Shown here piece after piece: positions 5,314-52,627 of a stretch of DNA of 64,000 bases. The position numbers and the translations under genes were made by a program. The DNA lies in NCBI GenBank assembly GCA_035510155.1, contig DATKHR010000379.1:5273-69272 (forward strand), read 5' to 3'. Every line of letters starts with the position of its first letter. Positions within the stretch are counted from its first letter, which is position 1. The notes under the pieces were generated by a model. The model ran no database searches. It was not told the origin of the DNA and saw nothing but the letters and a program-made list of their open reading frames with translations. This stretch comes from Vicinamibacterales bacterium (GTDB lineage: Bacteria; Acidobacteriota; Vicinamibacteria; Vicinamibacterales; CAVVIG01).

Positions 5314-5796
5314 TCACGAGTACCGCGCCGCAAGCAACGACACCGCCCGAACCGCGATGTTGGCATACACGCCCGCCATCGCGTCGTCAGCCATGATGCC
5401 GATACCGCCGTGGAGCCGTTCGAGGCGATTGGCAGGGTACGGTTTCACGATGTCGGCCGCGCGGAACACGAGAAACGCGAAGAGCGCTCCCCATCGCCCG
5501 ACCGGATTCATAAAGAGCGTGATGAGCATTCCCATCACCTCGTCGATCACCGCCTGGCCCGGGTCGGTGCGTCCGAAATGATGCTCGGCGACGCCGCTGC
5601 TCCACGATCCAATCACGAAGAGCACCAGGATCGTCACAGCGTGCGCGATCGCAGACGAGGGTAGAACGGCCCACAACGCGACCCCCGCTGCGGATCCGAA
5701 GGTGCCGGGCGCGAACGGGGCATAGCCAATGCCGCACGCGGTCGCGATGGTCAGCGCCGGGACTGTTCGGAGCGGATCCGGGATTCGGGATTTCAC
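5314..5796 (-). CDS. pgpA: phosphatidylglycerophosphatase A
   Basis: ORF 5314..5907(-) trimmed to GTG 5796, a GTGA overlap with the upstream stop. PgpA-like motifs GYAPFAPGTFGS, VIDEVMGM and IVKPYP. Codons 2-8 (KSRIPDP) are encoded by three heptamer units. Confidence 0.8.
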   Translation of the reverse strand: MKSRIPDPLRTVPALTIATACGIGYAPFAPGTFGSAAGVALWAVLPSSAIAHAVTILVLFVIGSWSSGVAEHHFGRTDPGQAVIDEVMGMLITLFMNPVGRWGALFAFLVFRAADIVKPYPANRLERLHGGIGIMADDAMAGVYANIAVRAVSLLAARYS

Positions 5797-7636: not shown

Positions 7637-8534
7637 GGCTCTCATCGAATGCATCCCGAACGTCAGTGAAGGCCGTCGCGCCGAGGTCATCGCCGGCATG
7701 ACCGACGGTCTGCGAGCGATCACCGGCATCCGGCTGCTCGATGCCTCGTCGGATCCGTCCCACAACCGATCGGTGTTCACGCTTGCCGGCGACGCCGCCG
7801 GCGTCGAAGCAGCTGTGCTGGCGCTCTTCGAACGCGCCGTGGCCGAGATTGACTTGCGGACGCACAAAGGGGAGCACCCGCGGCTGGGCGCCGTCGACGT
7901 CGTGCCGTTCGTTCCCATTGAAGGCGTCACGATGGCCGACTGCGTCGCGTTGGCGAAGAAGGTTGGCGCGTCGGTTGCGGAGCGTTTCGGCGTCCCGGTG
8001 TACCTCTACGAAGAAGCGTCGACCAATCCGGCCCGCAAGAACCTCGAAGACATCCGGCGCGGCGAGTTCGAAGGCCTGGCCACGAAAATGCGGACGGCAG
8101 CGTGGATGCCTGACTTCGGGCCGAGCACGCCGCATCCCACCGCCGGCGCCTCGGTCGTAGGCGCGCGGATGGCGCTCGTCGCGTACAACATCAACCTCGC
8201 GACGAATCGACTCGACGTCGCCAAGAAGATTGCGTCCGCCATCCGCCAGAGTAGTGGCGGCTATCGGTTCGTCAAGGCGGCCGGGTTCATGCTCGACGAC
8301 CGTGGCATCGTGCAGGTCTCGATGAACCTGACCAATTATGAGAAGACCCCCATCTTTCGCGTCTTCGAGACCGTCAAGCGCGAAGCGGAGCGCCACGGCG
8401 TCACCGTCCTGGAAAGCGAGATCGTCGGTTTGATTCCGTCGGCGGCCCTTCTGAGCGCGGCCGAATACTACCTGCAGATCGAGCGCTTCAAGCCCGATCA
8501 GGTGCTCGAGAACAGGCTGAGAGAGGTCAGATAA
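7635..8534 (+). CDS. glutamate formimidoyltransferase (FtcD N-terminal-type)
   Basis: ORF as given, 299 aa. The N-terminus MALIECIPNVSEGRR is typical of formiminotransferases, and the length fits the transferase domain. Confidence 0.8.
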   Translation: MALIECIPNVSEGRRAEVIAGMTDGLRAITGIRLLDASSDPSHNRSVFTLAGDAAGVEAAVLALFERAVAEIDLRTHKGEHPRLGAVDVVPFVPIEGVTMADCVALAKKVGASVAERFGVPVYLYEEASTNPARKNLEDIRRGEFEGLATKMRTAAWMPDFGPSTPHPTAGASVVGARMALVAYNINLATNRLDVAKKIASAIRQSSGGYRFVKAAGFMLDDRGIVQVSMNLTNYEKTPIFRVFETVKREAERHGVTVLESEIVGLIPSAALLSAAEYYLQIERFKPDQVLENRLREVR

Positions 8535-8559
8535 GTCGGTGGGGTCCGCGGATGGCTCT

Positions 8560-10083
8560 CTAGGCTGGCTCCGTCTCCTCATCGGCTCGACGCGAGGGCG
8601 CGATGCCGAACGCTTTCATCTTGCGGTACAAATTGCTGCGCTCGACGCCGAGGGCCTCCGCCGTGCGCGACATATTGCCCTGCTGCTCCGCCAGCGTCCG
8701 CAAGATGAGATCGCGCTCGAACCGGTCGCGCGCCTCGTGAAGCGTGAGCCGCTCGGCGCCCGTCTCAGGCACCGCCTGCGATGTATCAGCCGGGCTGCTC
8801 GAGTCGAGAAAGCTCAGGTCCGATGCCGCAATCCGATCCCCAGGCACCATGATCATGAGCCGCTCGATCACGTTGCGGAGCTCGCGGACATTGCCCGGCC
8901 ATGGGTATCGCTGAAGCGCGATCCGCGCGCCGGGCTCGAAGGTCTTGAGCCGCCGGCCGTCTTCCCGCGCGAGCTCCGACATGAAGTGATCGGCGAGGAT
9001 CGGAATGTCGTCCTGACGGTCCCTGAGCGGGGGCACGAAAATCGGAATGACATTGAGGCGGAAGTACAGGTCTTCGCGAAACTGCCCCGCGCGAATCTCC
9101 GACTGGAGGTCCTTATTCGTGGCCGCCAGTACGCGGGCGTCAACCTTGATGCGCGTGGTGCCGCCCACCGCCTCGAGCGTCTGCTCCTGCAGGACCCGCA
9201 GAACCTTCGCCTGTGTTTTCAAGCTCATGTCGCCGATCTCGTCGAGGAAGATGGTCCCTCCGTCCGCGGCCTCGAACTTGCCACGCCGATCCGCAACGGC
9301 TCCAGTGAACGCGCCGCGGACATGGCCGAACAGTTCGCTCTCGATGAGCTCTTCCGGAATGGCGGCGCAGTTGACTTCGACGAACGCGTGGTTGCGCCGC
9401 CGGCTCAGACCGTGAATGGTGCGGGCGACGAGCTCCTTGCCGGTGCCGTTCTCGCCGTAGATCAGCACGCGGCCGTTGGTCGGCGCCGCCATCGCCACCT
9501 GCTCCCGCAGCTGCCGCATGGCGTAGCTGTCCCCGACCATCGTCTGGGCGCGATCCACTTTCGCGCGCAGCGCGCGGTTCTCCTGCTCGAGGCGCCGCTG
9601 ATGGAGCGCGTTGCGGATGACCAGGACAGTCTTTTCCAGGGACAGCGGCTTCTCGACGAAATCGAACGCGCCCATTTTGATCGCCCGAACCGCCGACTCG
9701 ATATTGCCGTGGCCGGAGATGAGCACCACCTGGGCGTCCACCTGCCGTTCCCGCAGCCGCGCGAGCGTCGCGAGGCCGTCCATGCCCGGGAGCCATACGT
9801 CGAGCACGATAAGATCCACGGCGCCGCGCGTAACGCGCTCAAGGCACGCTTCGCCGCTCGACACGGCCTCGACGCCGTACCCTTCGTCGCGCAACACGCC
9901 GCTTAACGCGGACCGGACGCCGGGCTCGTCGTCAACGATGAGGATCGTGGGCTTCACTGGACCATCAACGGCGTGATCCGGGGCTTCGGATTCTGGATTT
10001 GGGGCGTGAGTCGGGATTCGGGATTCGGGATTCGTGCTCGCCGAAAGCTCGGAACCGACTGCCGAATCACTTGCGCTCCGCAA
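8560..10083 (-). CDS. sigma-54-dependent Fis-family response regulator (NtrC/NtrX-like)
   Basis: ORF as given. REC domain (ILIVDDEPGVR..LIVLDVWLPGMDG), AAA+ activator (GENGTGKE, GAFTGA, RVLAATN) and Fis HTH (NMSRTAEALGVERSNLYRKM). TTG 10083 has GGAGG 6 nt upstream, but codons 1-42 are encoded by repeat element A. An alternative in-frame GTG 9957 starts right at the REC domain. Confidence 0.85.
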   Translation of the reverse strand: MRSASDSAVGSELSASTNPESRIPTHAPNPESEAPDHAVDGPVKPTILIVDDEPGVRSALSGVLRDEGYGVEAVSSGEACLERVTRGAVDLIVLDVWLPGMDGLATLARLRERQVDAQVVLISGHGNIESAVRAIKMGAFDFVEKPLSLEKTVLVIRNALHQRRLEQENRALRAKVDRAQTMVGDSYAMRQLREQVAMAAPTNGRVLIYGENGTGKELVARTIHGLSRRRNHAFVEVNCAAIPEELIESELFGHVRGAFTGAVADRRGKFEAADGGTIFLDEIGDMSLKTQAKVLRVLQEQTLEAVGGTTRIKVDARVLAATNKDLQSEIRAGQFREDLYFRLNVIPIFVPPLRDRQDDIPILADHFMSELAREDGRRLKTFEPGARIALQRYPWPGNVRELRNVIERLMIMVPGDRIAASDLSFLDSSSPADTSQAVPETGAERLTLHEARDRFERDLILRTLAEQQGNMSRTAEALGVERSNLYRKMKAFGIAPSRRADEETEPA

Positions 10084-10186
10084 TCCTCGCCTCCCCGCTC
10101 ACGAGTCCCAATCCCCGATGACGAATCACGAATCCATCCGAATCCCCAACCCCAATCCCGAATCCCGAACCCCGAATCCGGACTGC
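9973..10186. repeat. heptamer-periodic inverted repeat element A (GGGATTC-type arm, about 63-nt spacer, GAATCCC-type arm)
   Basis: Read directly. Positions 9973-10036 carry tandem GGATTCG/TCGGGAT-like 7-mers. Positions 10100-10186 carry the complementary CGAATCC/GAATCCC-like 7-mers. The element abuts the kinase stop at 10187. Confidence 0.85.
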
Positions 10187-12508
10187 CTAGCAAGGTAACT
10201 CAATCGTGAACCGCGTCCCGTGTGGCGCGTTGCCCCCCACGTCGATATTTCCCCCGTGCTCGGCGATGATCCGTCGGACGATGGCCAAACCCAGGCCGCT
10301 GCCGCGCCGCTTGGTCGAATAGTACGGCAGGAACAGCTTCTCGCGCTCTGCCGGGGGGATCCCGGGCCCGTCATCGGACACCATGACGCGAACGATCGCA
10401 TTCGACGGATCGAGCTCGGTTTCGACCAGGATTTCGCCGCGCCGCTCCATCGCCTCGATCGCGTTGTCCACGAGATTGATGACGACGCGGCGGATCTGTT
10501 CGGGATCCAGTCGAACCAGCGGCACGTCCGGAGCGAAGCGCCGATCGATGTGCACGTCGGCAAAAATCCCGTCGTAGAGCGCCACGGTGTCCGTGATGAG
10601 CTGCGCGAGATCGGTCGGCACCGTCCGGGGCGACGGCATACGTGCGAACTGCGAGAATTCGTCGACGAGCCCTTTGAGCGACTCCACCTCGCCGACGATC
10701 GTCGACGTGCATTCGTCGACGAGCGCGCGCGCCTGGGCGGACGCACCGGAGAAATGGCGCCGCAAGCGCTCGGCGGACAGCTGGATGGGCGTCAGCGGGT
10801 TCTTGATCTCGTGCGCGAGCCGCCGCGCGACCTCGCGCCACGCGGCGACCTTCTGCGCGCGGATGAGCGGCGTGACATCGTCGAGCACGACGACCACACC
10901 GTCAGGCGTGCCGCTGTCGCCTGAGAGCACTGTCGCCGCGACAGCGAGGTGCCGTTCCTGCCCCTCACACGGGATCGCAAACTCGTGGGCCGCGGATTCC
11001 GACTTGCCGCGCGATGCAGCCGCCACGAGCTTGAGCAGCGGTTGAAGGTCCGGGCGATCGAGCACGACCATCGCCGGCTGGCCGATGATCTCCCGGTTCA
11101 GCCCCAGCAGCCGCGCGGCGGAACTGTTGATCGTCGTGATGGCCCCTGCCGCATCGAGCGACACGACGCCGGTGGAAATACGCTCCAGGATCGTCTCGAT
11201 GTAGCGGCGGCGCCCTTCGACCTCGACGTGCTTGCGCTCGAGGGCGATCGTGCCGCGCTCGATGCGGCGCCGGCTGGTCGCGAGCTCGCGTGCCATGGCG
11301 TTGAACGCTTCGACGAGCGCGCCGAACTCGTCGTTGCTCTGCGGCTCCACGCGCTGGTCGAGCCGCCCCGCGCCGATTTCGCGGGCCGCGGCCGCCAGGG
11401 CCTGCACGGGTCTGGTGATCCGCTTCGCGATGTAGAGACCCATCCACGTCGCGCCCACGAGGATGAGCAAGGTGGTCATGAGGAAGAACGAGAGATAGAC
11501 GCCGGTCAGCGGCCGCTTCAGCACGCGCAACTGGTTGTAGTTCTCGAACGCCTGTGTCATCCGCCTGGAACGCGTCACCAGGTCGCCTTTGAGGTAGTCC
11601 GTGATCACGACGACGCCCGTGGCCTGGCCGCCCGGTGACACGATGGCGGCCGCGGCATGCAGTAAATCGCCGCCGTCACCCAAAGGCTCGATGGATCGGG
11701 TCACCGGCCGCGCGGAAGGGGCTCCCGGCGCGGTCGACGCCGCGTCGAGCGCCTGCGCCGCGAGGCGGTCCGCCGCCACGCGGCTGTAGCCGGGCGGCAA
11801 CGCCGGGGCTGCCACGTCCACTACTGGCTCCAGATGTTTCGCCGACCCCGATCTCGACGCGACCCGATAGACGTCGACCATCTGGACGCTTTGTGATGCC
11901 ACATCGGGGGTGAGCCGATCGCGGATCAGTCGAAGATCACTTGCCGCCAAATCGGCGGGTGCCAGAGAACGGGCGATGCGTGCTGCCTGATCGCTCAAGA
12001 CGCTCTGACGGTCCGCGTAGTAGTCAGCCGCGATCTTGTTCGCCGACGAGAGAATCTCGTCCATCGGCGCGTTGAACCACCGGTCGACGCTGGTGCGAAT
12101 CAGCTCGCTTCCGACGATGAGCACGAGTACTGCCGGAACGAGCGTCATGCCGAGCAGCAGGACAACCAGCTTTGCACGAAAACGGGCGAACGGCAGCGCC
12201 TGCCGTCGCTCGACGAACAGCTTGACGATGTTGCGCGCCAGCACGAATACGAGCGCAGCCAGCATCGTGAGGTCAGCCGCTGAGAGGCCGTACAGAACGA
12301 ACTCGCCCAGGAAGTCAAAAGAGAACCGGGACGAGTTGGCGGTCGCGAGGAGCGTGACGAGCAGCAGCAGCAGGATGACGATGCCGGCGAAGATCAGGCG
12401 GGGATTGTCGCGGAACGGACGTCGGCGCGGGCGGCCGACATCCGCGGATCCACCCGCCTCTGCCCGAGTGGCCATGGTCGCGCTGACGGGCATCGCTGGT
12501 TCAGCCAT
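10187..12508 (-). CDS. ntrY: NtrY-like sensor histidine kinase (TM-HAMP-PAS-HisKA-HATPase)
   Basis: ORF as given, 773 aa. N-terminal TM segments, HAMP-like region, PAS, H-box RRLAHEIKNPLTPIQLSAERL, and HATPase motifs DDGPGIP and GSGLGLAIV. Confidence 0.75.
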   Translation of the reverse strand: MAEPAMPVSATMATRAEAGGSADVGRPRRRPFRDNPRLIFAGIVILLLLLVTLLATANSSRFSFDFLGEFVLYGLSAADLTMLAALVFVLARNIVKLFVERRQALPFARFRAKLVVLLLGMTLVPAVLVLIVGSELIRTSVDRWFNAPMDEILSSANKIAADYYADRQSVLSDQAARIARSLAPADLAASDLRLIRDRLTPDVASQSVQMVDVYRVASRSGSAKHLEPVVDVAAPALPPGYSRVAADRLAAQALDAASTAPGAPSARPVTRSIEPLGDGGDLLHAAAAIVSPGGQATGVVVITDYLKGDLVTRSRRMTQAFENYNQLRVLKRPLTGVYLSFFLMTTLLILVGATWMGLYIAKRITRPVQALAAAAREIGAGRLDQRVEPQSNDEFGALVEAFNAMARELATSRRRIERGTIALERKHVEVEGRRRYIETILERISTGVVSLDAAGAITTINSSAARLLGLNREIIGQPAMVVLDRPDLQPLLKLVAAASRGKSESAAHEFAIPCEGQERHLAVAATVLSGDSGTPDGVVVVLDDVTPLIRAQKVAAWREVARRLAHEIKNPLTPIQLSAERLRRHFSGASAQARALVDECTSTIVGEVESLKGLVDEFSQFARMPSPRTVPTDLAQLITDTVALYDGIFADVHIDRRFAPDVPLVRLDPEQIRRVVINLVDNAIEAMERRGEILVETELDPSNAIVRVMVSDDGPGIPPAEREKLFLPYYSTKRRGSGLGLAIVRRIIAEHGGNIDVGGNAPHGTRFTIELPC

Positions 12509-15024: not shown

Positions 15025-15236
15025 TCGCCGACAGACTCGAAAAGCTGGTCGAGGAAATGGTCGACCGCGGGGTGCAGTTCAACGATGCGGTCCGCGAGTT
15101 CGAGAAGCGCTTCATCGCGCGCGTGCTCGGCCAGTGCGACGGCAGCTTGACAAAAGCCGCCTGCACGCTCGGCATCCATCGCAATACGCTCACGCGCAAG
15201 ATGGAGGAATACAAGATCAAAAAACGGGCAGGATAG
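15021..15236 (+). CDS. small Fis-type helix-turn-helix DNA-binding protein
   Basis: Tail of ORF 14463..15236(+) from GTG 15021, a GTGA overlap with the purC stop. Sequence VIADRLEKLVEEMV..GSLTKAACTLGIHRNTLTRKMEEYKI. Confidence 0.65.
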   Translation: MIADRLEKLVEEMVDRGVQFNDAVREFEKRFIARVLGQCDGSLTKAACTLGIHRNTLTRKMEEYKIKKRAG

Positions 15237-15310
15237 GCGGGACTGGCAGGAGAGGCGGGAAAGGCCGGAGGGCGCCCTGCCGTAGCCGCTATCCCGGCCC
15301 TTCGTCCCCG

Positions 15311-18656: not shown

Positions 18657-19115
18657 CTAGACCCGTCCGGTCCAGGCACCAATTGCGGCGTTGCCGCCAC
18701 CGTACGAGTGCAGGATGGCCAGGGCATCGGCGGCCCGCGGCTCGGATCTGATCGCCACGAGCACACCGCCCCGCCCGACCAGCGTTTCGAAGATCCGGCC
18801 GTCATGCGGCTGAAAGCCGACACGACGCATCGCCGCTGCAAGGCCCAGCTTCGACAGGTCCTGCGACACGCCTTGTAACGCGCCGAGCAGCCGGCCCCGC
18901 CCGATTACAGCGCCCACACCAGCCAATTCGAACCGGTCACCAGCGTTGCCGAAGGTGCTCTCCAGCAACCGAGCGGACTCGGGGCTCTCCTTGGCGAGCA
19001 GTGACAGCGCTTCCTTCGGGAATCCTCCCTTCTTGAGCGCGTCGATCGCCTTCCCCGCCCAAGCGGCGTCCTGAAACACTGCAACCGTGAAGAGACCGCT
19101 CTCGACGTCAATCAT
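18657..19115 (-). CDS. hypothetical protein (two short alpha/beta modules resembling general-stress YflT/DUF1269-type domains)
   Basis: ORF 18657..19259(-) trimmed to ATG 19115 (MIDVESGLFTVAVFQD). The 48 upstream codons are encoded by repeat element B. The functional assignment is weak. Confidence 0.45.
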   Translation of the reverse strand: MIDVESGLFTVAVFQDAAWAGKAIDALKKGGFPKEALSLLAKESPESARLLESTFGNAGDRFELAGVGAVIGRGRLLGALQGVSQDLSKLGLAAAMRRVGFQPHDGRIFETLVGRGGVLVAIRSEPRAADALAILHSYGGGNAAIGAWTGRV

Positions 19116-19117
19116 GC

Positions 19118-19227
19118 TCCTGGCTCGCTTCTCGTTGCTCCGGGCTCGCGGCTCGCTTCTCGTGGCTCGTAGCTCGTGGCTGGCGGCTCGTTCGAGTCCC
19201 GAGCTACGAGTCCCGAGTCCCGAGTTG
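19118..19227. repeat. heptamer-periodic inverted repeat element B (TCGNNGC-type arm followed by AGTCCCG-type arm)
   Basis: Read directly. A strict 7-nt phase runs over about 10 units, then switches to complementary units. By hand pairing, 19159-19190 pairs with 19193-19224 (23 WC + 4 GU of 32). Confidence 0.85.
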
Positions 19228-19245
19228 CGAAGATAATCTATCACG

Positions 19246-20463
19246 ATGCACGTTGCCATCGTGGGCGCGGGTCCGGCCGGTGCGTGGGCCGCCTATCAAC
19301 TCGCGCGGCGCGGCGCGCGAGTGACCATGTTCGATCACTCGCACCCGCGCGAAAAACCGTGTGGGGGCGGGGTCACCGGCCGCGCGCTCGCGCTCGTGGC
19401 CGGCGCGCTTGCGGAGGTGCCAGCCCGCGGCGGGCTCCGGCGCGGAGGGGTCTGCGGCGTGGGAAACAACGAGCTGCCGCTCGCTGTCGCGACGATCCGA
19501 ACCGCGCGATTCACCGATTCGGTCAACAACACCCAGGCGGTCGTCCCCCTCGCAGAACGCGCACTCTTGGTCGCCAGCCGCTCGGCGTTCGATGCGGCGC
19601 TTCTGAACGCAGCCGTGCGTGCGGGCGCGTCACTCAACACCGCGCGCGTCGTCGACGTCACGATTGGCGCATCGTCAATCGACGTCCACACACGCGAGAC
19701 GGCGTGGGCCGCCGACTTCCTCATCGGTGCCGACGGCGCCAACAGCATCGTGCGTCGGCGTGCCGGCCGGCGCTTCAGTCGCGAACAGTTGTCGATGGCC
19801 ACGGGGTTCTTTGCGCAGGGTGTCACCAGCGACGAAATCGTCATCGAGATGGTCGCCGACCCGCCCGGATACATCTGGTCGTTTCCGCGCCCTGATCACC
19901 TGGCGATTGGCATCTGCGCCCAGGCGGATGCCGGCGCGCGGCCCGAGGCTCTCCGGGCGCGCGCCGCGGCGTGGGTCCGCGCGAGGCGCCTGGCGGACGG
20001 CGCGCCTCTCATCCCGTACTCGTGGCCGATTCCCTCGCTCGGTTCGCGCGACCTCGCGTCGCAACAGATTGCCGGGGCGCGCTGGTGCTTGGTGGGGGAC
20101 GCCGCCGGCCTGGTCGATCCCATCACACGCGAGGGTATTTACTTCGCGCTGGCGTCAGCGGGATGGGCGGCCGAGGCGATCACTGCCGGCGGCGACTGCG
20201 CGCGCGCGTATTGCGCGCGGGTGCGGACCGAAGCGGTCTCCGAGTTGTCCCGCGCCGCGCGCCTCAAAGCCGGATTCTTCCGTCCAGCGTTCACAACGTT
20301 GATGGTGGACGCCCTCGGCCACAGCGCCGCGATTCGCGCGGCAATGGCCGACCTCATTGCCGGGACCCAGACCTATCGCTCGTTAAAGTGGCGTCTGCTC
20401 AGAACATTCGAGCTCGGGTTCGCCCGCGCCCTCTACGCGAGCGCGTGGACTCGCACGGCGTGA
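19246..20463 (+). CDS. geranylgeranyl reductase-family FAD-dependent oxidoreductase
   Basis: ORF as given, 405 aa: MHVAIVGAGPAGAWAAYQLARRG..KPCGGGV..LVGDAAGLVDPITREGI. Confidence 0.8.
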   Translation: MHVAIVGAGPAGAWAAYQLARRGARVTMFDHSHPREKPCGGGVTGRALALVAGALAEVPARGGLRRGGVCGVGNNELPLAVATIRTARFTDSVNNTQAVVPLAERALLVASRSAFDAALLNAAVRAGASLNTARVVDVTIGASSIDVHTRETAWAADFLIGADGANSIVRRRAGRRFSREQLSMATGFFAQGVTSDEIVIEMVADPPGYIWSFPRPDHLAIGICAQADAGARPEALRARAAAWVRARRLADGAPLIPYSWPIPSLGSRDLASQQIAGARWCLVGDAAGLVDPITREGIYFALASAGWAAEAITAGGDCARAYCARVRTEAVSELSRAARLKAGFFRPAFTTLMVDALGHSAAIRAAMADLIAGTQTYRSLKWRLLRTFELGFARALYASAWTRTA

Positions 20464-29117: not shown

Positions 29118-29135
29118 GATTCCTGCACCTCCCGC

Positions 29136-30605
29136 CTATCCGGCCCCTCCTGTCTCGATGGCGCGCCTCAGTAGCTCGTTCACGCGTTTCGGGTTCGCCT
29201 TTCCACCCATCGCCTTCATCACTTGCCCGACGAGGAACCCAAAAGCGTTGGTCTTTCCGCCGCTGAATTGTGCGACGGCATCGGCGTTTCTGGCCAGAAC
29301 GTCGGTGATCACCGCCACAATCTTCGACTCATCGTCGATTTGGGTCAGACCCTCGGCCTCTACAATCTCGCGCGCCGAGCGGCCCGAAGCGAGCATCCTG
29401 CCGAATACCTCTTTGCCGATCGTGTGGCTGATCGCGCCGCGCTCTATCAGGACAACGAGGGCTGCCAGCGCGGGTGCCGGCACCTTGGCGCGCACGACGT
29501 CCACATCGTCGGTGCCGAGCTCGTTCAGGGCGGTCCGGACGGGCCCCATTACGAAATTGGCGGTGGGCTTGGGGGGAGCGCCGGCGTCGACGGCGTCCTC
29601 GAAGTATCGGCCGAGACCAGGCTTGAGCGTCAGCGCGACGGCATCGCTTTCACCCAGGCCGCGATCGAGCTGGAGGCGCCGGCGCCAAGCCGCCGGCAAC
29701 TCGGGCAACGCGCGCCGGATCGCGTCGATCCGCTCCGCCGGCGCCAGGAGCGGCGGCAAATCCGGCTCCGGAAAGTAGCGATAGTCGTGCGCCTCCTCTT
29801 TGCTTCGCATGGCGAACGTTCGTCCGCCCGCGGCGTCCCACAGTCGCGTTTCCTGCACCACACGGCCGCCCGCACGAAGCTCCTCGATCTGACGGCCGAT
29901 TTCGAAGTCAATTGCCTTCTCGACGAACCGGAAAGAGTTCAGGTTCTTGATTTCCGTCTTCGTCCCGAGGGAGGCCGTGGCGTCGGGACGGACCGACACG
30001 TTGGCGTCACACCGAAGGCTGCCCTCTTCCATATTGCCGTCGTTGACGCCGATGGCGACCAGCAGCTCCCGGAGGTAGCTAAAGAATGCCGCAGCGTCGT
30101 TCGCCGATCGGAAGTCCGGTTCGGTCACGATCTCGATGAGCGGTGTCCCGGCACGGTTCAGATCGACGTAACTGTGCGCGTCTGAATCGCGGAAGCCTTC
30201 GTGCAGCAGCTTCCCGGCGTCTTCCTCCAGATGAACGCGTTTGATACGGATGTCATACTCCGGCGCCCAGTAGTCGCTTCGTGCGGCAATACGCCCATCG
30301 GTCGCGAGGGGGCGCTCGTACTGCGAAATCTGGTAGCCCTTCGGCAGATCGGGATAGAAGTAGTTCTTGCGCGCGAAAATCGACACGTGGTGAATCGTGC
30401 AGTTCAGAGCGAGCGCGGCGCGAATCGCCGCGTCAGCGGCGGCGTGATTGAGCGCCGGCAGCGCGCCGGGCAGGCCCAGACACACCGGGCAGACGTGGGT
30501 GTTCGGCGGGGCGCCGAACCGCGTGCTGCAGCCGCAGAAGATTTTCGACGCCGTCAGTAGCTGCGCATGGATCTCGAGCCCGATAACAGGCGCGAAGGAG
30601 ATCAC
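29136..30605 (-). CDS. gatB: Asp-tRNA(Asn)/Glu-tRNA(Gln) amidotransferase subunit B
   Basis: ORF as given, 489 aa: VIGLEIHAQL..CPVCLGLPGALP..NYFYPDLPKGYQISQ. Confidence 0.95.
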   Translation of the reverse strand: MISFAPVIGLEIHAQLLTASKIFCGCSTRFGAPPNTHVCPVCLGLPGALPALNHAAADAAIRAALALNCTIHHVSIFARKNYFYPDLPKGYQISQYERPLATDGRIAARSDYWAPEYDIRIKRVHLEEDAGKLLHEGFRDSDAHSYVDLNRAGTPLIEIVTEPDFRSANDAAAFFSYLRELLVAIGVNDGNMEEGSLRCDANVSVRPDATASLGTKTEIKNLNSFRFVEKAIDFEIGRQIEELRAGGRVVQETRLWDAAGGRTFAMRSKEEAHDYRYFPEPDLPPLLAPAERIDAIRRALPELPAAWRRRLQLDRGLGESDAVALTLKPGLGRYFEDAVDAGAPPKPTANFVMGPVRTALNELGTDDVDVVRAKVPAPALAALVVLIERGAISHTIGKEVFGRMLASGRSAREIVEAEGLTQIDDESKIVAVITDVLARNADAVAQFSGGKTNAFGFLVGQVMKAMGGKANPKRVNELLRRAIETGGAG

Positions 30606-37318: not shown

Positions 37319-38797
37319 ATGAAGCGAGCGACTACGGTTCTCCTCCTCATTGCCGCCATCGGGGCCGGGGCCGGCGCGTTTTACTACAGGCACAACGGCA
37401 ACGAGGTTCAGGTGAATACCTCCTCGGTTTCGCGTGGCGAAATCGTCGACACCGTCGGCGCCACAGGGACGCTGCAGGCAGTGGTCACCGTGCAGGTCGG
37501 GAGTCAGGTGTCGGGCACCATCAGCTGGCTGGGGGCCGACTTCAATTCAATCGTCAAGAAGGGCCAGGTGATCGCCAGACTCGAGCCGTCCTTGTTCGAG
37601 GCGGAGGTGGCGCAGGCCAAGGCGAACCTGATCAAGTCCCAGGCGGACGTCGAGCACAACAAAGTGGCGTTGACCGACGCCCAGCAGAAGTACGCGCGCA
37701 CCAAGGAGCTCGCTGCGAGGAACCTGCTGCCGCAGAGCGATCTCGACGCGGCGAAGATCGCGGTGGACTCGGCGGCGGCGATGTTGCGGTCGTCCGAAGC
37801 GACCGTCGAGCAGGCGAAGGCCACGCTCAACCAGAACCAGGTGAACCTCGAGCACTCCATTATCGAGGCGCCGATCGACGGCATCGTGACCCAGCGCAGC
37901 GTCGACGTCGGCCAGACGGTGGCCGCGAGCATGCAGGCGCCGACGCTGTTCATCATCGCCGCAGACCTGACCAAGATGCAGGTCAACGCGAACATTGACG
38001 AAGCGGACGTGGGGCGCATCCGCCCGCATCAACACGTGACGTTCCGCGTGGACGCGTATCCCACCGACGTCTTCGAAGGCACGGTCGCGCAAATCCGCTT
38101 ACAGCCGGTCGTCGTGCAGAACGTCACGACTTACGGCACCGTCATCGACGTGCCGAACGCGGAGCTGAAGCTCAAGCCGGGGATGACCGCGAACGTCAAG
38201 GTCGAGATTGCCAGGAAGAGCGACACGCTGCGCATCCCGAACACGGCACTGCGCTTCAGGCCGACGACAGACATGTTCACGGCGCTGAACCAGGCCATCC
38301 CGCCGGAGGTTCAGTTCGCAGGCGGCGGGCGGACCGGACCGCGTGGCCCGGGTGGGTCGGGTCAGTCGAGTGGGTCGGGTGGGTCGGGTCGGTCGAGTGG
38401 AACGGGCGCGTCCAGTGCTTCCCCAACGCTCGCGACGCCCCAGCCGCCTCAGGTGGCCAAAAGGCCGTCCGAGCTGCTCAAACCCAAATACGGCAGCATC
38501 CAACAGGCCCAGACGATTGACGCGTTGTTTGCGCCCCTGCCGACGGTGGAAACGCGCGGGCGGGTGTGGTTGTTCATCGATCATCAGCTCAAGCCGGTCA
38601 ATCTCCGCCTGGGGATTACCGATGGCACCAACACGGAAGTCTTGAGCGGAGAGCTGCAGGACAAGACAGAAGTAGTCACGAGCATCACCGGCCTCGGCTC
38701 GACCCGGGGGACCGCCAACACAGGTACAGGTAACCCGTTGATGCCGGGAGGGCGTGGCCCGGGCGGATTCGGCGGCGGAGGCCGAGGCGGCCGATAA
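37319..38797 (+). CDS. efflux periplasmic adaptor (HlyD/MacA-like) with G/S/P-rich C-terminal insertions
   Basis: ORF as given, 492 aa: [31 protein letters not shown]..coiled coil..[10 protein letters not shown]. Confidence 0.85.
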
Positions 38798-46543: not shown

Positions 46544-47848
46544 ATGATTCCTGCACTCCTGATCGCGACGATGGCGGTGACGGCGACGGACCAGACCGTT
46601 CAGGTCGCCAAAGGCACAAAGCTCGTCGTCAACAACTTCGCCGGCGACGTGAACGTCAAGACCTGGGACAAGGACAGCGTCCGAGTCGAAGTGAACCATT
46701 CCGATCGCGAGACCATTGACATCAAGCAAGTCGATCAGACGCTGAGCGTGCGATCGCGATCGACGCGCGGCGGGCCGCCGCGCTCGCTCGACTACACGAT
46801 CACGATGCCCGGATGGATGTCGATCGGCGTCAGCGGCACCTATGCGGACATCGTGATCGAAGGCGCGGGAGGCGACGTCAGCGTCGAAACGACGCACGGT
46901 GACATTACGGTCCGTGGCGGCTCCGGCTTCGTTTCGCTGAAGTCGGTGCAAGGCGCGATCGTCGTCGAGAAATCCAAGGGACGCGTCGAAGTGCGCGCCG
47001 TAAACGAGGGCATCCGCCTCGCTGACATCAGCGGCGACCTGTCGGCGGAGTCGACCAACGGCAGCATCATCCTCGATCGAATCGATTCGGCGAACGTGGA
47101 TCTCTATACCGTCAACGGGAACATCTCCTACGACGGCCCGATCAAGGATAGAGGGCTCTATCGTCTGACGACGCACAACGGGCTGATTGCGCTGCCGATC
47201 GCCGAACGCGCGAACATCACGCTGTCGGCCCGCACCTACAACGGCTCGATCCGCTCGACGTTCCCGTTGCCCGGCGACGACTCGGAGCGGCGCGGCAAGC
47301 GGGTCTCGCTCACGCTCGGCAATGGGAGCGCGCACGTCGAGCTCGAGTCTTTCAGCGGGGCCATTGCTCTGCGACGCCCGGGAGAAGCGCGCCCTGAGAC
47401 GGAGCGGCGGCGCCGGGATAGAGGCAACCGCGACCACGATCTCGACGTTGGCCCGCCGAACCCGCCAAGCCCGGCGAACCCGCCTGACCCGCCCGTTCCT
47501 CCGCGCACACCGGGACCGAAAGACAAGACTGACAAGAACAAGGACAAGCCCAAAGGCGATCGCTTCGATCCCGGCGATTGGGGCGTCGAGGATCTCCACG
47601 CCGTGATTGCCGAAGCGGTTGCCGCGGCACATGCAGCCATCCCGCAGGCAATGGCCGAAGCCCGGGCAGCCATTCCGGACGCCGCGAGCGAGGCCTTAGC
47701 GTCGCTGCCGGAAGCCCTCGACGAGGCGATAGCGGCGTTGCCACGGACCATCGACGACGCGATCGCCGGGGCGGGCCTCCGAGCGGCGCCGTGGCCGATG
47801 CCGCTGCCGAGCCCCCGACCGACGCCGCGACCGGACCCGCGCCGATGA
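46544..47848 (+). CDS. DUF4097-family beta-strand-repeat protein with P-rich and A-rich C-terminal tail
   Basis: ORF as given, 434 aa. Repeats of the type GDVSVETTHGDITVRGGSG / GDLSAESTNGSIIL. Confidence 0.7.
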   Translation: MIPALLIATMAVTATDQTVQVAKGTKLVVNNFAGDVNVKTWDKDSVRVEVNHSDRETIDIKQVDQTLSVRSRSTRGGPPRSLDYTITMPGWMSIGVSGTYADIVIEGAGGDVSVETTHGDITVRGGSGFVSLKSVQGAIVVEKSKGRVEVRAVNEGIRLADISGDLSAESTNGSIILDRIDSANVDLYTVNGNISYDGPIKDRGLYRLTTHNGLIALPIAERANITLSARTYNGSIRSTFPLPGDDSERRGKRVSLTLGNGSAHVELESFSGAIALRRPGEARPETERRRRDRGNRDHDLDVGPPNPPSPANPPDPPVPPRTPGPKDKTDKNKDKPKGDRFDPGDWGVEDLHAVIAEAVAAAHAAIPQAMAEARAAIPDAASEALASLPEALDEAIAALPRTIDDAIAGAGLRAAPWPMPLPSPRPTPRPDPRR

Positions 47849-49259: not shown

Positions 49260-51782
49260 CTACTCGGCGCGAAGGGTCGAGAGCGGCTTGTTCCGCAGGA
49301 CGTCGAGACTCGAGAGCACGCCGATGGCGGCCACGAGCATCGACGTGAGGACGACCCCGGCGATGTGCTCGCTCGGGAAGATCCGCCACGGGATCTCGAG
49401 CGCGTATCGGCTGACGCCCCACGTGAGTACGATAGCGCCCAGCGAGCCGACGAGCCCCGCGAGCGATCCGAGGACTCCATATTCCAACAGGAGCATCCGG
49501 GCGATTGTGCGCGTATTGGCGCCCAGCGTCTTGAAGACGGCGGCCTCGTACAGCCGCTGGAACTTTGTCATCGCGACGGCACCGATGAGAATCAACGCCC
49601 CGCTGAAGAGCACCAGACCGCCCACCACCGTGATGGCCAGCGTCACCTTGGACATCACGTCGCGAACGGTCTCGAGAACCTCGCGAAAGTCAATGACCGA
49701 GACATTGGGGAACTTCTCGACGAGATCGTGTTGGAATCGGGCGCGCTCGGTCGGGTCCTGCGGCCCCTTGATCGGCGAGACGAAGGTCTGCGGTACGCGA
49801 TCGAGCGAACCCGGCCGGAAGACAAACATGAAGCCGCCGTTGCGCGATTGGCGCCACTCGACGTCGCGAACGCTCGTCACCCTCGCACTGACCGACTGCC
49901 CGAGGATATCGAAGCGCATCGTGTCCCCGACGTGGATGTTGAACCGCTCGCGAATGCCTCGCTCGATCGAGACTTCCGGGTCCGTCGACGGACCGTTCCA
50001 GAACGCCCCTTCCCGCACCCGCTCGTTCGCCTCGAGGTGGTCACGGTAGGTGATGGTGTATTCACGCGCCAACGACCCGCGCCGGCGAACGTCCTCGACC
50101 CCCTCTATGTCCGTCTGGCGCCCCGACACCCCGGTCACGCGCGCGCGCATCACCGGAATGAGCTGGATTTCCCCCGCCCTGCTGGCGACAAATGCGCGCA
50201 CCCCGTCAGCCTGCCTTGGCTGGATGTCGAGCAGAAACATGTCGGGAGCGTCCTCGGACACCTGGAGCGAGAACTCGCTCAACAGCGTCGCCTGCAGCGA
50301 ACGCACGCCGACGATGAAGAAGGCGCCGAGACCGACCGCCAGCAGAATCACTCTCGTTTGGTTGCCCGGCCGCGATAGGTGCAGCACCGCGTGCCGCAGC
50401 GGAAACGAACGCGAGCTCGCCAGAGGCGACACGAGCGCCACGAGCGCCCGCCCGGCCAGCTGCAACACGAAGGCGAGCCCGGCGAAGCTCGCGCACACGA
50501 TGAGGCCGATTCTGAGCGACGCGGCCTGCCAGGCCGTGATCGCCACGAGCCCGGCCGCGATGGCCACCAGCGCCGCCACGCCGAGCCAATCTCGATGGCG
50601 CCGGACGGCTTCGTCCCGTAGCAGCAGCGATGGCCTGATGAACCTCACCTGCAGCAGCGGCGCGAGCGAGAACAGCAGCGACACGAGCACGCCGATGCCG
50701 ATGCCCTGAAGGGCTGCGCTCCACGCCACACCGTAATGCGCCTGTGCAAAGAGAGACGATGAAGATCCGAGCGCGAGCGGAATCGACGCGACCGCGGCGG
50801 CCGCGAGCGCGACGCCGAGCAGGCTGCCCGCGAGGCCCAGCGCGACGACTTGCAGAATGTAGACGGCGATGATCTGCGCGCTTCTCGATCCCACGCATTT
50901 GAGCACGGCGATGCTGCGAATCTTCTGCAAAATGAACACGCGGGTGACGCTCGAGACGGCGATCCCTCCGAGGATGACGATGACCAGGCCGACCAGACTG
51001 AGATAGTTCTCTGCGCGGTCGAAGTCGCGCCCGACCTGATCCTCGTTCGAGCGGTACGACCGGACGTTGATGAATTCGTCGCGCAACTCCCGTCGGAGCG
51101 CCCTTACCAGCGGATCGATGCGATCGTCGGGGACTTTCGCCTGCAGTTGCCGCCCCGCCCGGCTGCCGAAAGCGAGAAGGCCGGTCGACGGCAGATCCGC
51201 ATAGTCGATCAACATCCGCGGACCGAGGCTGAAACCGCCCACGCCGCGCCCGGGCTCCCTTGCGAGGACAGCCCGGATCGTGAACGCCGTCTGTCCGATG
51301 ACAATCGAATCGCCCACGTTGACCCCGAGCGCGGTCAGCAGTTCGGGCCGTACGATTGCCCCATGTCCTTCGACGAGAGCATGCCCGAACGGCTGATCGC
51401 CCTGCAGCGTCAGGACTCCATACAGTGGAAACCCGGCCTGTACGGCCCTCAACTCCACCATTTTCGCGATCGGCCGCCCGTCGGCCGGCCGCGCCATCGT
51501 CGGCGTCTCGATCGTTTCTGTGCGCGCCGTCGCGCCAGCCTCAGCGAGACGCCGATCGATCGTCGATCGCGCCAGCTCCGACCACTCGCGATTGGTCCCG
51601 ATCGCCACATCGGCGGCGATTAGTGCCTTCGCCTCGGTGCCGAACACGACGCGCGCGCTCTGAATGACCGACCGCAGCGCGACAATGGCGGCGACGCCGA
51701 CGGCGATACAGACGAAGAAGAACAAGAGGCGGCGCCACGAGGCGCGCGTCTCGCGAACGGCCATGCGAAGGACGAATCTCAT
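49260..51782 (-). CDS. ABC transporter permease with duplicated FtsX domains (YbbP-like)
   Basis: ORF as given, 840 aa. Two FtsX-type 4-TM modules. Confidence 0.85.
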   Translation of the reverse strand: MRFVLRMAVRETRASWRRLLFFFVCIAVGVAAIVALRSVIQSARVVFGTEAKALIAADVAIGTNREWSELARSTIDRRLAEAGATARTETIETPTMARPADGRPIAKMVELRAVQAGFPLYGVLTLQGDQPFGHALVEGHGAIVRPELLTALGVNVGDSIVIGQTAFTIRAVLAREPGRGVGGFSLGPRMLIDYADLPSTGLLAFGSRAGRQLQAKVPDDRIDPLVRALRRELRDEFINVRSYRSNEDQVGRDFDRAENYLSLVGLVIVILGGIAVSSVTRVFILQKIRSIAVLKCVGSRSAQIIAVYILQVVALGLAGSLLGVALAAAAVASIPLALGSSSSLFAQAHYGVAWSAALQGIGIGVLVSLLFSLAPLLQVRFIRPSLLLRDEAVRRHRDWLGVAALVAIAAGLVAITAWQAASLRIGLIVCASFAGLAFVLQLAGRALVALVSPLASSRSFPLRHAVLHLSRPGNQTRVILLAVGLGAFFIVGVRSLQATLLSEFSLQVSEDAPDMFLLDIQPRQADGVRAFVASRAGEIQLIPVMRARVTGVSGRQTDIEGVEDVRRRGSLAREYTITYRDHLEANERVREGAFWNGPSTDPEVSIERGIRERFNIHVGDTMRFDILGQSVSARVTSVRDVEWRQSRNGGFMFVFRPGSLDRVPQTFVSPIKGPQDPTERARFQHDLVEKFPNVSVIDFREVLETVRDVMSKVTLAITVVGGLVLFSGALILIGAVAMTKFQRLYEAAVFKTLGANTRTIARMLLLEYGVLGSLAGLVGSLGAIVLTWGVSRYALEIPWRIFPSEHIAGVVLTSMLVAAIGVLSSLDVLRNKPLSTLRAE

Positions 51783-52627
51783 TGCGGATTGCGGACTGCG
51801 GATTCCACCCCAGGGCGGCTGCCGCCCTGGGGGCCCCGGGATTGCGGACTGATTGCAGGTTGTGGATTGATAGCCGATTGCGGATTGCGGTTTGCCGACT
51901 GGGGATTGGCCGAGAACCGCGCTCCAGAATCCGCAGTCCGCACTCCGGGATCCGCAATAGAAAGGGTGCTGTCGATAACGCGCCCGTCGCGCAGGACGAG
52001 CGTGCCGTCGGCCATCGCCGCCAGCTCCGCGTCATGCGTCACGAGGACGATCGTGCTTCCCCGCCGGGCATGCACGGTCCGCAAGAGATCCATGATGTGC
52101 CGGCCGTTGCTGCTGTCGAGATTGCCGGTCGGCTCGTCCGCCAGGACGATCGATGGATCGTTGGCCAGGGCGCGCGCGAGCGCGACGCGTTGCTGCTCGC
52201 CGCCTGACAGCTGCGACGGGTAGTGATGGGACCGTCCGCGCAATCCGACCTCGTCGAGCAGCGCTTCCGTTCGCCGGCGCGTATCGCCGACGCCGGCGAT
52301 TTCCATGGGCACTGCGATGTTCTCGTAGGCCGTAAGCGACGGAATCAGGTGAAAGAACTGGAACACGAAGCCGATCTTCTCGCCGCGCAGCTTCGCGAGC
52401 GAGTCCTCGTCGAGGCGCGTGATGTCGACGCCGTCAATGACGACCTGCCCCGACGTCGGCGCATCGAGGCCGGCAATCAGCCCGAGCAAGGTGGACTTGC
52501 CGCTTCCCGACGGCCCGACCACGGCGGCAAACTGACCCTTGGGAATCTCCAGTGTCAACGGATGCAGAATCGTGAGCGGTTCGCTGCCGCTCATGACGGT
52601 TTTCGAGACCTCGCGCAACTCGATCAT
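51779..52627 (-). CDS. ABC transporter ATP-binding protein (YbbA/LolD-like) with repeat-encoded C-terminal tail
   Basis: ORF 51779..52684(-) trimmed to ATG 52627, an ATGA overlap with the upstream stop. Contains [24 protein letters not shown] and [10 protein letters not shown]. The last 60 or so codons are encoded by element C. Confidence 0.88.
   Translation of the reverse strand: MIELREVSKTVMSGSEPLTILHPLTLEIPKGQFAAVVGPSGSGKSTLLGLIAGLDAPTSGQVVIDGVDITRLDEDSLAKLRGEKIGFVFQFFHLIPSLTAYENIAVPMEIAGVGDTRRRTEALLDEVGLRGRSHHYPSQLSGGEQQRVALARALANDPSIVLADEPTGNLDSSNGRHIMDLLRTVHARRGSTIVLVTHDAELAAMADGTLVLRDGRVIDSTLSIADPGVRTADSGARFSANPQSANRNPQSAINPQPAISPQSRGPQGGSRPGVESAVRNPQ
51783..51958. repeat. heptamer-periodic inverted repeat element C (ATTGCGG-type units, internal perfect hairpin, CCGCAAT-type units)
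   Basis: Read directly. ATTGCGG/ACTGCGG-like units run from 51783. The hairpin is CCCCAGGGCGG-ctg-CCGCCCTGGGG (51808-51832). The complementary arm AATCCGC AGTCCGC ACTCCGG GATCCGC AAT lies at 51928-51958. Confidence 0.85.

Follow-up and report, generated by a model that had tools for sequence, protein, structure and literature searches.

What fills the 229 nucleotides (nt) that separate an ntrY-like kinase gene from the ntrX-like regulator gene downstream of it, and does this DNA do anything for the genes on either side? The locus lies in a Vicinamibacterales bacterium of the phylum Acidobacteriota (assembly GCA_035510155.1, contig DATKHR010000379.1, positions 5,273 to 69,272), and the whole stretch analysed, 64 kb with a G+C content of 65.6%, is referred to here as the window. 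A reading made from the letters alone (the sequence-only reading) had noticed between the two genes a pair of arrays of 7-nt units, and had proposed that a hairpin and a G-quadruplex (G4) are alternative folds just upstream of the regulator's ribosome binding site. The element itself is confirmed as real, and its proposed interpretation is borne out in part. We consider it probable that it is a non-coding palindromic pair of heptamer arrays, grown in place, which forms a hairpin close to a stop codon in the manner of repetitive extragenic palindromic (REP) sequences, and which acts as a modulator or is carried as a passenger. The element is lineage-specific and dispensable, either a modulator or a passenger close to neutrality, and not a conserved NtrYX regulatory device.

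The repeat element and the start of ntrX

The placement of the element between an NtrY-like kinase and an NtrX-like sigma-54 regulator was borne out by Pfam, the regulator product comprising Response_reg, Sigma54_activat, AAA_lid_14 and HTH_8 domains. The kinase ends in TAG at 10189-10187 on the minus strand; position 10187 does belong to the stop, as had been said, but as the last base of that codon, and not as the first base after the element. The regulator begins at a GTG codon (9957-9955, minus strand), which leaves the spacer of 229 nt. The features are as follows.

10187..12508, minus strand: ntrY-like sensor histidine kinase gene, from the list of open reading frames (ORFs), with Pfam NtrY_N, HAMP, PAS, HisKA and HATPase_c; its C-terminus, ..FTIELPC and stop, is kept in relatives
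10100..10186, minus strand: G-rich proximal arm, eight GGATTCG-like heptamers in mRNA sense with at most one mismatch each, the first beginning 8 nt past the stop
10144..10173, minus strand: G-quadruplex-type tract GGGGTTCGGGATTCGGGATTGGGGTTGGGG (reverse complement of 10144-10173), five runs of at least three G with loops of 2-4 nt
10037..10099, minus strand: central segment of 63 nt, which carries GGAGG (10094-10090) and TTG (10083-10081) and continues the imperfect stem
9973..10036, minus strand: C-rich distal arm, five CGAATCC-like heptamers, three of them perfect
9958..9972, minus strand: pre-start segment of 15 nt, containing GATGGTCCA, with partial pairing to the stop-codon region at the stem base
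8560..9957, minus strand: ntrX-like sigma-54-dependent response regulator gene, starting at GTG 9957 (MKPTILIVDDE..), as placed by Pfam, homologue N-termini and lengths, G+C content at third codon positions (GC3) and the contrast of synonymous with non-synonymous changes

Read as mRNA, the order is TAG, GCAGTCC, GGATTCG-like units, the 63-nt centre, CGAATCC-like units, 15 nt and GTG 9957. The description of the arms as complementary heptamer arrays holds, with eight units facing five; the best pair of arm segments, 10009-10034 with 10159-10184, is 92% complementary over 26 nt, and Tandem Repeats Finder assigns the proximal arm a period of 7 and 6.1 copies. The 14-mer GGATTCGGGATTCG (at most two mismatches) has 12 occurrences in the window, where 1.34 would be expected, and none of 100 shuffles reached 12; a whole-window repeat search detected no second copy of the central segment or of the arms-plus-centre architecture. 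An independent soil-metagenome contig, L161, carries the element at the same length, again as a 229-nt spacer, and the element is therefore not an assembly artefact. The string GATGGTCCA of the pre-start segment is also found at the centre of an element of different unit in the relative L173 (described below), and may, to judge from this match, be a remnant of that other array type.

The sequence-only reading had offered two starts for the regulator. The coordinates underlying the first are exact, with GGAGG at 10094-10090 lying 6 nt ahead of TTG 10083-10081 in the regulator frame (ORF 8560..10083), and the leader of 42 residues that would result reads ..STNPESRIPTHAPNPESEAPDH... This start is disfavoured, and the evidence favours the second option, GTG 9957, with the whole element as an intra-operon spacer. 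The Pfam Response_reg match begins 5 residues after GTG 9957. Among the 120 best homologue clusters (85-98% identity), the start lies exactly 4 residues ahead of ILIVDDE, matching GTG 9957, in 95, and 4-6 residues ahead in 103, and the longer calls found in 15 have unrelated, heterogeneous extensions that are read-throughs of upstream repeats. GC3 is 0.52 over the 42 leader codons versus 0.85 in the gene (binomial p = 6e-7). Between the window and L161, whose regulators are 98% identical, synonymous and non-synonymous codon changes number 3 and 8 in the leader and 18 and 4 in the ntrX gene, respectively. Where the regulator of a relative is 88-91% identical, the spacer is unrelated or missing altogether, and the gene begins in every case with GTG or ATG followed by (K/N/T)PTIL; conservation of the leader peptide, which had been named as a check on the spacer view, is absent from every relative except L161. 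The leader frame is uninterrupted in the window as in L161, but only because stop codons are absent from GGATTCG and CGAATCC alike. On these comparisons the leader is non-coding and the whole element an intercistronic spacer, and we hold the identity of the element and the start at GTG 9957 with high confidence.

For annotation, the correct ntrX start is GTG 9957. The stop-free GGATTCG and CGAATCC units let gene callers and readers alike extend ntrX into the repeat; the gene call P0001 is 20 residues too long, and about 12% of the best 120 homologue clusters are extended.

The junction in relatives and the period-7 arrays

The loci of close relatives, obtained by exact-protein look-ups and derived from soil, groundwater and other metagenomes, keep a syntenic block that includes nrdR, ntrY, ntrX and FTCD. 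The ntrY-ntrX junction within this block takes many forms.

L171/L172: without array; 7-nt overlap (GTGCTGA)
L001: without array; TGATG overlap
L165: without array; 5 nt
L170: without array; 34 nt
L163/L164: without array; 70 nt
L162: without array; 163 nt, unstructured (z = +1.3)
L166: CTGATGG array; 68 nt; z = -4.5
L167: degenerate CTGATGG array
L168/L169: CTGATGG array that starts within the stop codon of the kinase (TGC-TGA-TGG); 97 nt; z = -8.0, -56.2 kcal/mol
L173-L182, a population: CTGATGG array; alleles of 97 or 100 nt; z = -5.7 and -7.1

Another inverted heptamer array, (CTGATGG)n ... (CCATCAG)n, is thus found at this junction in L166, L168/L169 and L173-L182. Hairpins of this type begin 0-8 nt past the ntrY stop, and all array hairpins at the junction, of either type, begin 0-9 nt past it. 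The element of L168 consists of the arrays and a 4-nt loop, with no core. Two relatives that differ at 20 of 1395 nt in ntrX, L170 and L173, provide an empty and a filled allele: L170 is without the 63-nt array core and retains a 6-bp stem base, CAUGGC-AUUA-GCCGUG, and the comparison shows no direct-repeat duplication, only the stem base being retained. In a rough neighbour-joining tree of the regulators, array-bearing and array-free lineages are interleaved, and only the window and L161 carry the GGATTCG type. Because the junctions of relatives are so variable, we regard this site as one of recurrent gain, loss and turnover of inverted heptamer arrays. The overlapping and 5-nt junctions suggest that the ancestral ntrY-ntrX pair was co-transcribed and coupled. 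A conserved two-component operon whose genes overlap, are parted by a short spacer or flank one of two unrelated repeat hairpins amounts to a natural experiment, and expression compared across these junction alleles could reveal whether such repeats have any effect.

As to origin, growth in place is favoured over a transposed REP or MITE (miniature inverted-repeat transposable element), because the centre has no second copy in the window and the L168 element has no core. The arrays would have grown as 7-nt units slipped during replication on a small hairpin that was already there, the complementarity of the arms being maintained by template switching at quasi-palindromes, by selection for pairing, or by both; transposition of a defined element would not be the source. 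Correction of quasi-palindromes by template switching is established in E. coli. The string TGATTCGGC, common to the central 63 nt of the window and the array-free spacer of L162, is a possible seed of the GATTCGG unit.

Other features of these loci deserve mention in their own right. The (CTGATGG)6 array after ntrY in L168 (1108-1150) begins inside the upstream stop codon; CTGATGG is also the stop/start overlap motif in L001 (CCTGATGGC), a hint that the ancestral junction provided the seed of this unit, and in any TGA-containing unit with a 7-nt period the stop triplet rotates through all three frames. In L170, ntrY is called as two ORFs of 492 and 233 residues (7692-9966), reflecting a frameshift or an assembly error, and the intergenic region between the TonB and GroEL genes (1777-2728) is about 775 nt longer than in L173, the surplus resembling a transposase remnant.

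The element belongs to a wider population of arrays. In 189 kb comprising the window and six close relatives, a census of arrays (at least 3 copies, at least 85% self-identity) found 32 of period 7, against 7, 8, 6 and 3 of periods 5, 6, 8 and 9, and none of periods 10-12. This corresponds to 16.9 period-7 arrays per 100 kb versus 3.0 in a background of ntrX loci that are distant and represent many phyla (1.04 Mb; orthologues of at most 74% identity among the matches listed), an enrichment of about 5-6-fold. Half of the period-7 arrays (16/32) have an inverted partner with identical unit within 350 nt. The units are locus-specific (CGGGATT, GATTGCG, GGCTGAT, TGAGAAC, AAGATTG, ATAGCTG, ACGAGCA, GGGGACT and others), and several inverted array pairs are AT-rich or not G-rich, so that the common feature is the complementary-heptamer hairpin and not G4 potential.

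There is evidence here for a more interesting by-product of the study, namely the in-place building of locus-specific heptamer hairpins, repeated at the ntrY-ntrX junction. We tentatively suggest, as a possibility that we would still call rather unlikely, that the lineage builds and rebuilds intergenic hairpins in place, in the form of 'palindromic microsatellites', symmetric locus-specific 7-nt units extending a small stem like the 6-bp CAUGGC/GCCGUG hairpin of L170 into stop-abutting stems of ~25-90 bp, and that unrelated units, GGATTCG and CTGATGG, have struck the ntrY-ntrX junction in this way on at least two occasions. If true, this would represent a lineage-specific mutational mechanism, or a selection regime for stop-proximal hairpins, distinct from transposed REPs and MITEs as well as from the repeats that Xanthomonas and Nostoc build of a single unit.

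Within the 64-kb window GGATTCG arrays occur at two sites, the junction and the following.

5774-5792: GGATYCG array of 2.7 copies, abutting the TGA stop (5793-5795) of a minus-strand ORF and C-rich in mRNA sense; no inverted partner of this array was detected

Other arrays of the window and its relatives are diverse in unit and setting. At 19115-19225, some 11 GGCTCGY heptamers and, directly after them, 5 CGAGTCC units lie between divergent genes, a 152-aa gene on the minus strand and a DAO/FAD-binding gene on the plus strand (ATG near 19247); the orthologous regions of L170 (147-284) and L173 (894-991) hold arrays of the same unit family (ACGAGCA, other strand), and some arrays therefore persist at orthologous sites. 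At 51780-51956, just upstream of an ATG near 51766 (minus sense), GATTGCG arrays occur together with AATCCGC units in inverse sense and a hairpin, CCCCAGGGCGGCTGCCGCCCTGGGG, that is perfect and GC-rich, which makes this a further inverted heptamer element of another unit. Two 9-nt arrays with 27- or 18-nt super-periods, CGGGTGGGT and CCCGCCGAA (38349-38406 and 47452-47493), carry one G4 motif each and lie inside long ORFs with high GC3. An 18-nt repeat, GGCAGGAGAGGCGGGAAA, is present in 2.7 copies upstream of groES (15227-15274), and a 26-nt inverted copy, 85% complementary, lies 14 kb away (29121-29146). In L171 (9603-9692), (GAACTGA)5.7/(TTCTCAG)5.7 follows ntrX between convergent genes and begins inside the upstream stop codon. 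Finally, between the RDD and PgpA genes, L170 (14193-14230), L173 (14192-14222) and L175 (10312-10354) have GGGGACT arrays 4-5 units long, and this unit is exactly that of the Nostoc repeats (GGGGA[C/T]T).

Predicted folding, divergence and rival explanations

From stop to start, the RNA is predicted to fold as an imperfect hairpin of 86 base pairs at -112.5 kcal/mol, against -94.2 +/- 4.8 kcal/mol for dinucleotide shuffles of TAG..GTG (z = -3.8; a 261-nt version of the element gives z = -2.5). In the fold model its base extends from the last base of the kinase stop codon to 3 nt before the regulator start. The 63-nt spacer had been pictured as an open loop; the prediction has the stem continuing through the centre, with an apical stem-loop, UUGCG-GAG-CGCAA, at 10083-10071, in which TTG 10083-10081 pairs with 10071-10073 (probability unpaired 0.01-0.10). 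GTG 9957 is open in the model (0.94-1.0).

Window and L161 differ by 16 substitutions and no indels over the 229 nt, versus 1.6-2.0% divergence in the flanking genes. The differences amount to 3.4% in the G-rich arm, 9.5% in the centre and 10.9% in the C-rich arm, compared with 1.6% in the ntrX gene, and the pre-start 15 nt (9958..9972) are identical; at the level of sequence the element evolves at about the neutral rate. The predicted stability is nonetheless kept (window -112.5, L161 -111.7 kcal/mol), whereas 16 random substitutions yield -100 +/- 6.4 kcal/mol and only 3.5-4.5% of simulations are as stable as observed. As evidence for structural selection on the element this is weak.

In the reading that we prefer, the 229-nt spacer of a bicistronic mRNA would fold as one long imperfect hairpin. 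A REP that lies no more than 15 nt from a stop codon causes ribosomes to stall and translation to fall (Liang et al. 2015, as cited in PMC12306157), and REPs stabilise upstream mRNA against 3' exonucleases (Newbury et al. 1987, as cited in the same source). By analogy, the stop-proximal stem would hinder termination and lower the output of the upstream kinase, and the hairpin may shield the mRNA upstream of it from 3' exonucleases. The tight stop/start coupling of relatives would be replaced by independent initiation at GTG, and a hairpin that loops itself out would leave stop and start adjacent, which may explain the tolerance of insertions at this site. From this analysis, we judge a real REP-like effect on expression to fall somewhat short of an even chance, and most of the weight not placed on it goes to neutrality. 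Strong coupling by translational unmasking is not claimed, the modelled shifts in accessibility being slight: over the 18 nt before GTG the mean probability of being unpaired is 0.35 in the unconstrained model and 0.43 when the stop-proximal 22 nt are forced unpaired, in mimicry of a terminating ribosome. In the models, the repeated arms re-pair in another register when either these nucleotides or the G4 tract is blocked.

Several points weigh against a REP-like hairpin grown in place. Its functional steps are all inferential. Accessibility around GTG is moderate in all modelled states (0.35-0.43), and a strong effect on ntrX initiation is not predicted. The L161 RNA folds in another register, with a stem that starts 9 nt after the stop, and random bases at the 16 variable positions are equally stable in 35% of trials. 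The local alignment of the centre with the L162 spacer is not significant (p = 0.07; for L163, p = 0.14). Heptamer arrays are also found in divergent intergenic regions (window 19115-19225; L163 12331-12433), so a role tied to stop codons cannot explain the whole array class.

A rival view is that the element is a neutral by-product, the arrays having been generated by slippage in a tolerant spacer with no measurable effect on ntrY or ntrX expression. Divergence of the element near the neutral rate, its absence from relatives with 88-91% identical regulators, presence or absence differing among close strains, the locus-specific units and the small change in modelled accessibility all agree with it, as does the fact that no function was found for the comparable repeats of Rehm et al. 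(PMC4692102). Against this, a hairpin of 86 bp that starts at the stop is unlikely to be invisible to ribosomes and RNases, given the REP precedent as cited above, its stability was kept despite 16 substitutions (p about 0.04), and unrelated inverted arrays recur at this very junction. We consider strict neutrality unlikely, while granting it more than any other rival.

A G4 switch, in RNA or in the non-template DNA, would develop the alternative folds of the sequence-only reading: a co-transcriptional G4 would compete with the hairpin and free the C-rich arm, altering ntrX translation or mRNA stability in a K+- or condition-dependent manner. The G-rich arm does satisfy the four-G3-tract pattern, as had been noted (GGGGTTCGGGATTCGGGATTGGGGTTGGGG), and such canonical motifs are otherwise depleted in the window (5 on both strands versus 15.9 +/- 3.8 in block shuffles), 3 of the 5 lying inside tandem-repeat arrays; related GGGAATC and GGGGAYT repeats form G4 in vitro (PMC4692102). 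Folded alone, the G arm prefers G4 (-33.9 vs -27.5 kcal/mol), but once the C arm is present the hairpin wins, remaining the minimum-energy fold of the full element with G4 energies allowed. Any G4 would thus be transient, preceding transcription of the C arm, and of the two alternative folds proposed, the long hairpin and the G4 motif are both predicted, while G4 is not favoured in the full element. Forcing the G4 tract to be unpaired moves start accessibility only from 0.35 to 0.39. Furthermore, most inverted heptamer arrays in the lineage (CTGATGG, GAACTGA, AAGATTG) are not G4-capable, from which it follows that G-richness is not the feature they share. A switch of this kind is improbable.

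Slightly less probable again is a terminator without a U-tract, or a processing site, that would end the ntrY transcript and leave ntrX to its own promoter. The great stability of the hairpin, its position directly after the stop codon and the presence of similar arrays between convergent genes in relatives (L171 9603-9692) would suit this role. The overlapping or 5-nt junctions of relatives, however, indicate ancestral co-transcription and coupling, and the distal arm ends only 15 nt from the GTG start. The scan of 9700-10500 detected neither an intrinsic (Rho-independent) terminator, the sequence past the stem being CCGTTGATGGTCCAGTG with no T-tract, nor a sigma-70-like promoter. A known Rfam cis-regulatory RNA was likewise set aside, no family matching the same interval at gathering score and two sub-threshold hits (E = 0.37 and 0.59) being chance matches.

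The weakest rival, initiation at TTG 10083 from a GGAGG Shine-Dalgarno sequence with a 42-aa leader translated from the distal arm, can point to the spacing of that motif, the frame and the gene call extended into the arm, yet it is very improbable in view of homologue N-termini, codon statistics of non-coding type, a leader that is not conserved at the protein level, the paired state of TTG in the model and an open frame that the stop-free units explain.

Comparison with known repeat classes

The element shares with the REPs and bacterial interspersed mosaic elements (BIMEs) of enterobacteria the character of an intercistronic, extragenic palindrome that yields a stable RNA hairpin, often no further than 15 nt away from the stop codon upstream. 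It differs from them in that their units are of 20-40 nt with a genome-wide consensus and an associated RAYT transposase, whereas its stem is built of tandem heptamers with no shared consensus; no other copy of the element or its centre is present in the window and units differ between loci, so it is not counted as a REP or BIME. Nor is it a MITE, in view of the coreless L168 element and of L173 and L170 alleles that show no target-site duplication. Coupled two-component operons, in which stop and start overlap or abut, are represented for ntrY-ntrX by L171/L172, L165 and L001; in the lineage of the window a structured spacer of 229 nt replaces the overlap.

Tandem heptamers of intergenic location, often directly upstream of starts, are also known as the short tandemly repeated repetitive (STRR) sequences of cyanobacteria and the TAACTGA repeats of Beggiatoaceae, for which a post-transcriptional role has been proposed and not shown. 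Those are mostly direct arrays of a few genome-wide units, with one indirect repeat among 170 sets in BOGUAY (MacGregor 2015, PMC4679880), in contrast to the inverted pairs (16/32) and locus-specific units found here.

The closest comparison is with the G-rich heptamer repeats of Xanthomonas, whose unit is GGGAATC, and of Nostoc, whose unit is GGGGA(C/T)T (Rehm et al. 2015, PMC4692102). The xanthomonad repeats are 89-93% intergenic; in all three genomes the repeats lie mostly between co-oriented ORFs, and each Xanthomonas genome contains 70-75 convergent inverted pairs. Both units form G4 in vitro, and closely related species differ in their repeats; the authors, who found no function, discussed how hairpin and G4 would compete. 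The class is defined by at least two tandem units (at least 14 bp) with a tract of three or more G per unit and at least four uninterrupted G-tracts, the unit being GGGAATC at least once in Xanthomonas, or GGGGA(C/T)T at least twice within the G4 pattern in Nostoc; the G-rich strand lies at most 50 bp downstream of a stop, on the coding strand, and one unit is found at ~90-190 loci.

The window element resembles these repeats in most respects. It consists of tandem 7-nt units with a tract of three to four G, has at least four such tracts, and is G4-capable by motif. It is intergenic between co-oriented ORFs, unit 1 beginning 8 nt past TAG and the C arm ending 15 nt before GTG, and like them it is G-rich on the coding strand past the stop and on the non-coding strand before the next ORF. 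As in the convergent pairs, an inverted partner array, 92% complementary, offers a potential stem-loop, and as in the repeats at large, length and sequence vary between close relatives. The differences lie in the unit, which is GGATTCG or GGGATTC, with no GGGAATC in the element; GGGGATT occurs twice in the G arm, once inside the G4 tract, and not in tandem, which falls outside the Nostoc unit definition, and the unit fits the looser form (GGGANTN)n. They lie also in the phylum, and in the organisation of the genome, units in this Vicinamibacterales lineage differing by locus, instead of a single unit being dominant genome-wide, and many arrays not being G-rich. A literature search on the exact repeat strings found no paper. 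The notion of a hairpin/G4 switch is not original to this locus, having been raised by Rehm et al. for inverted heptamer repeats in general. The element is thus best filed with the known intergenic inverted heptamer repeats, with a new unit and in a new phylum, and this poorly understood class is hereby extended to the Acidobacteriota.

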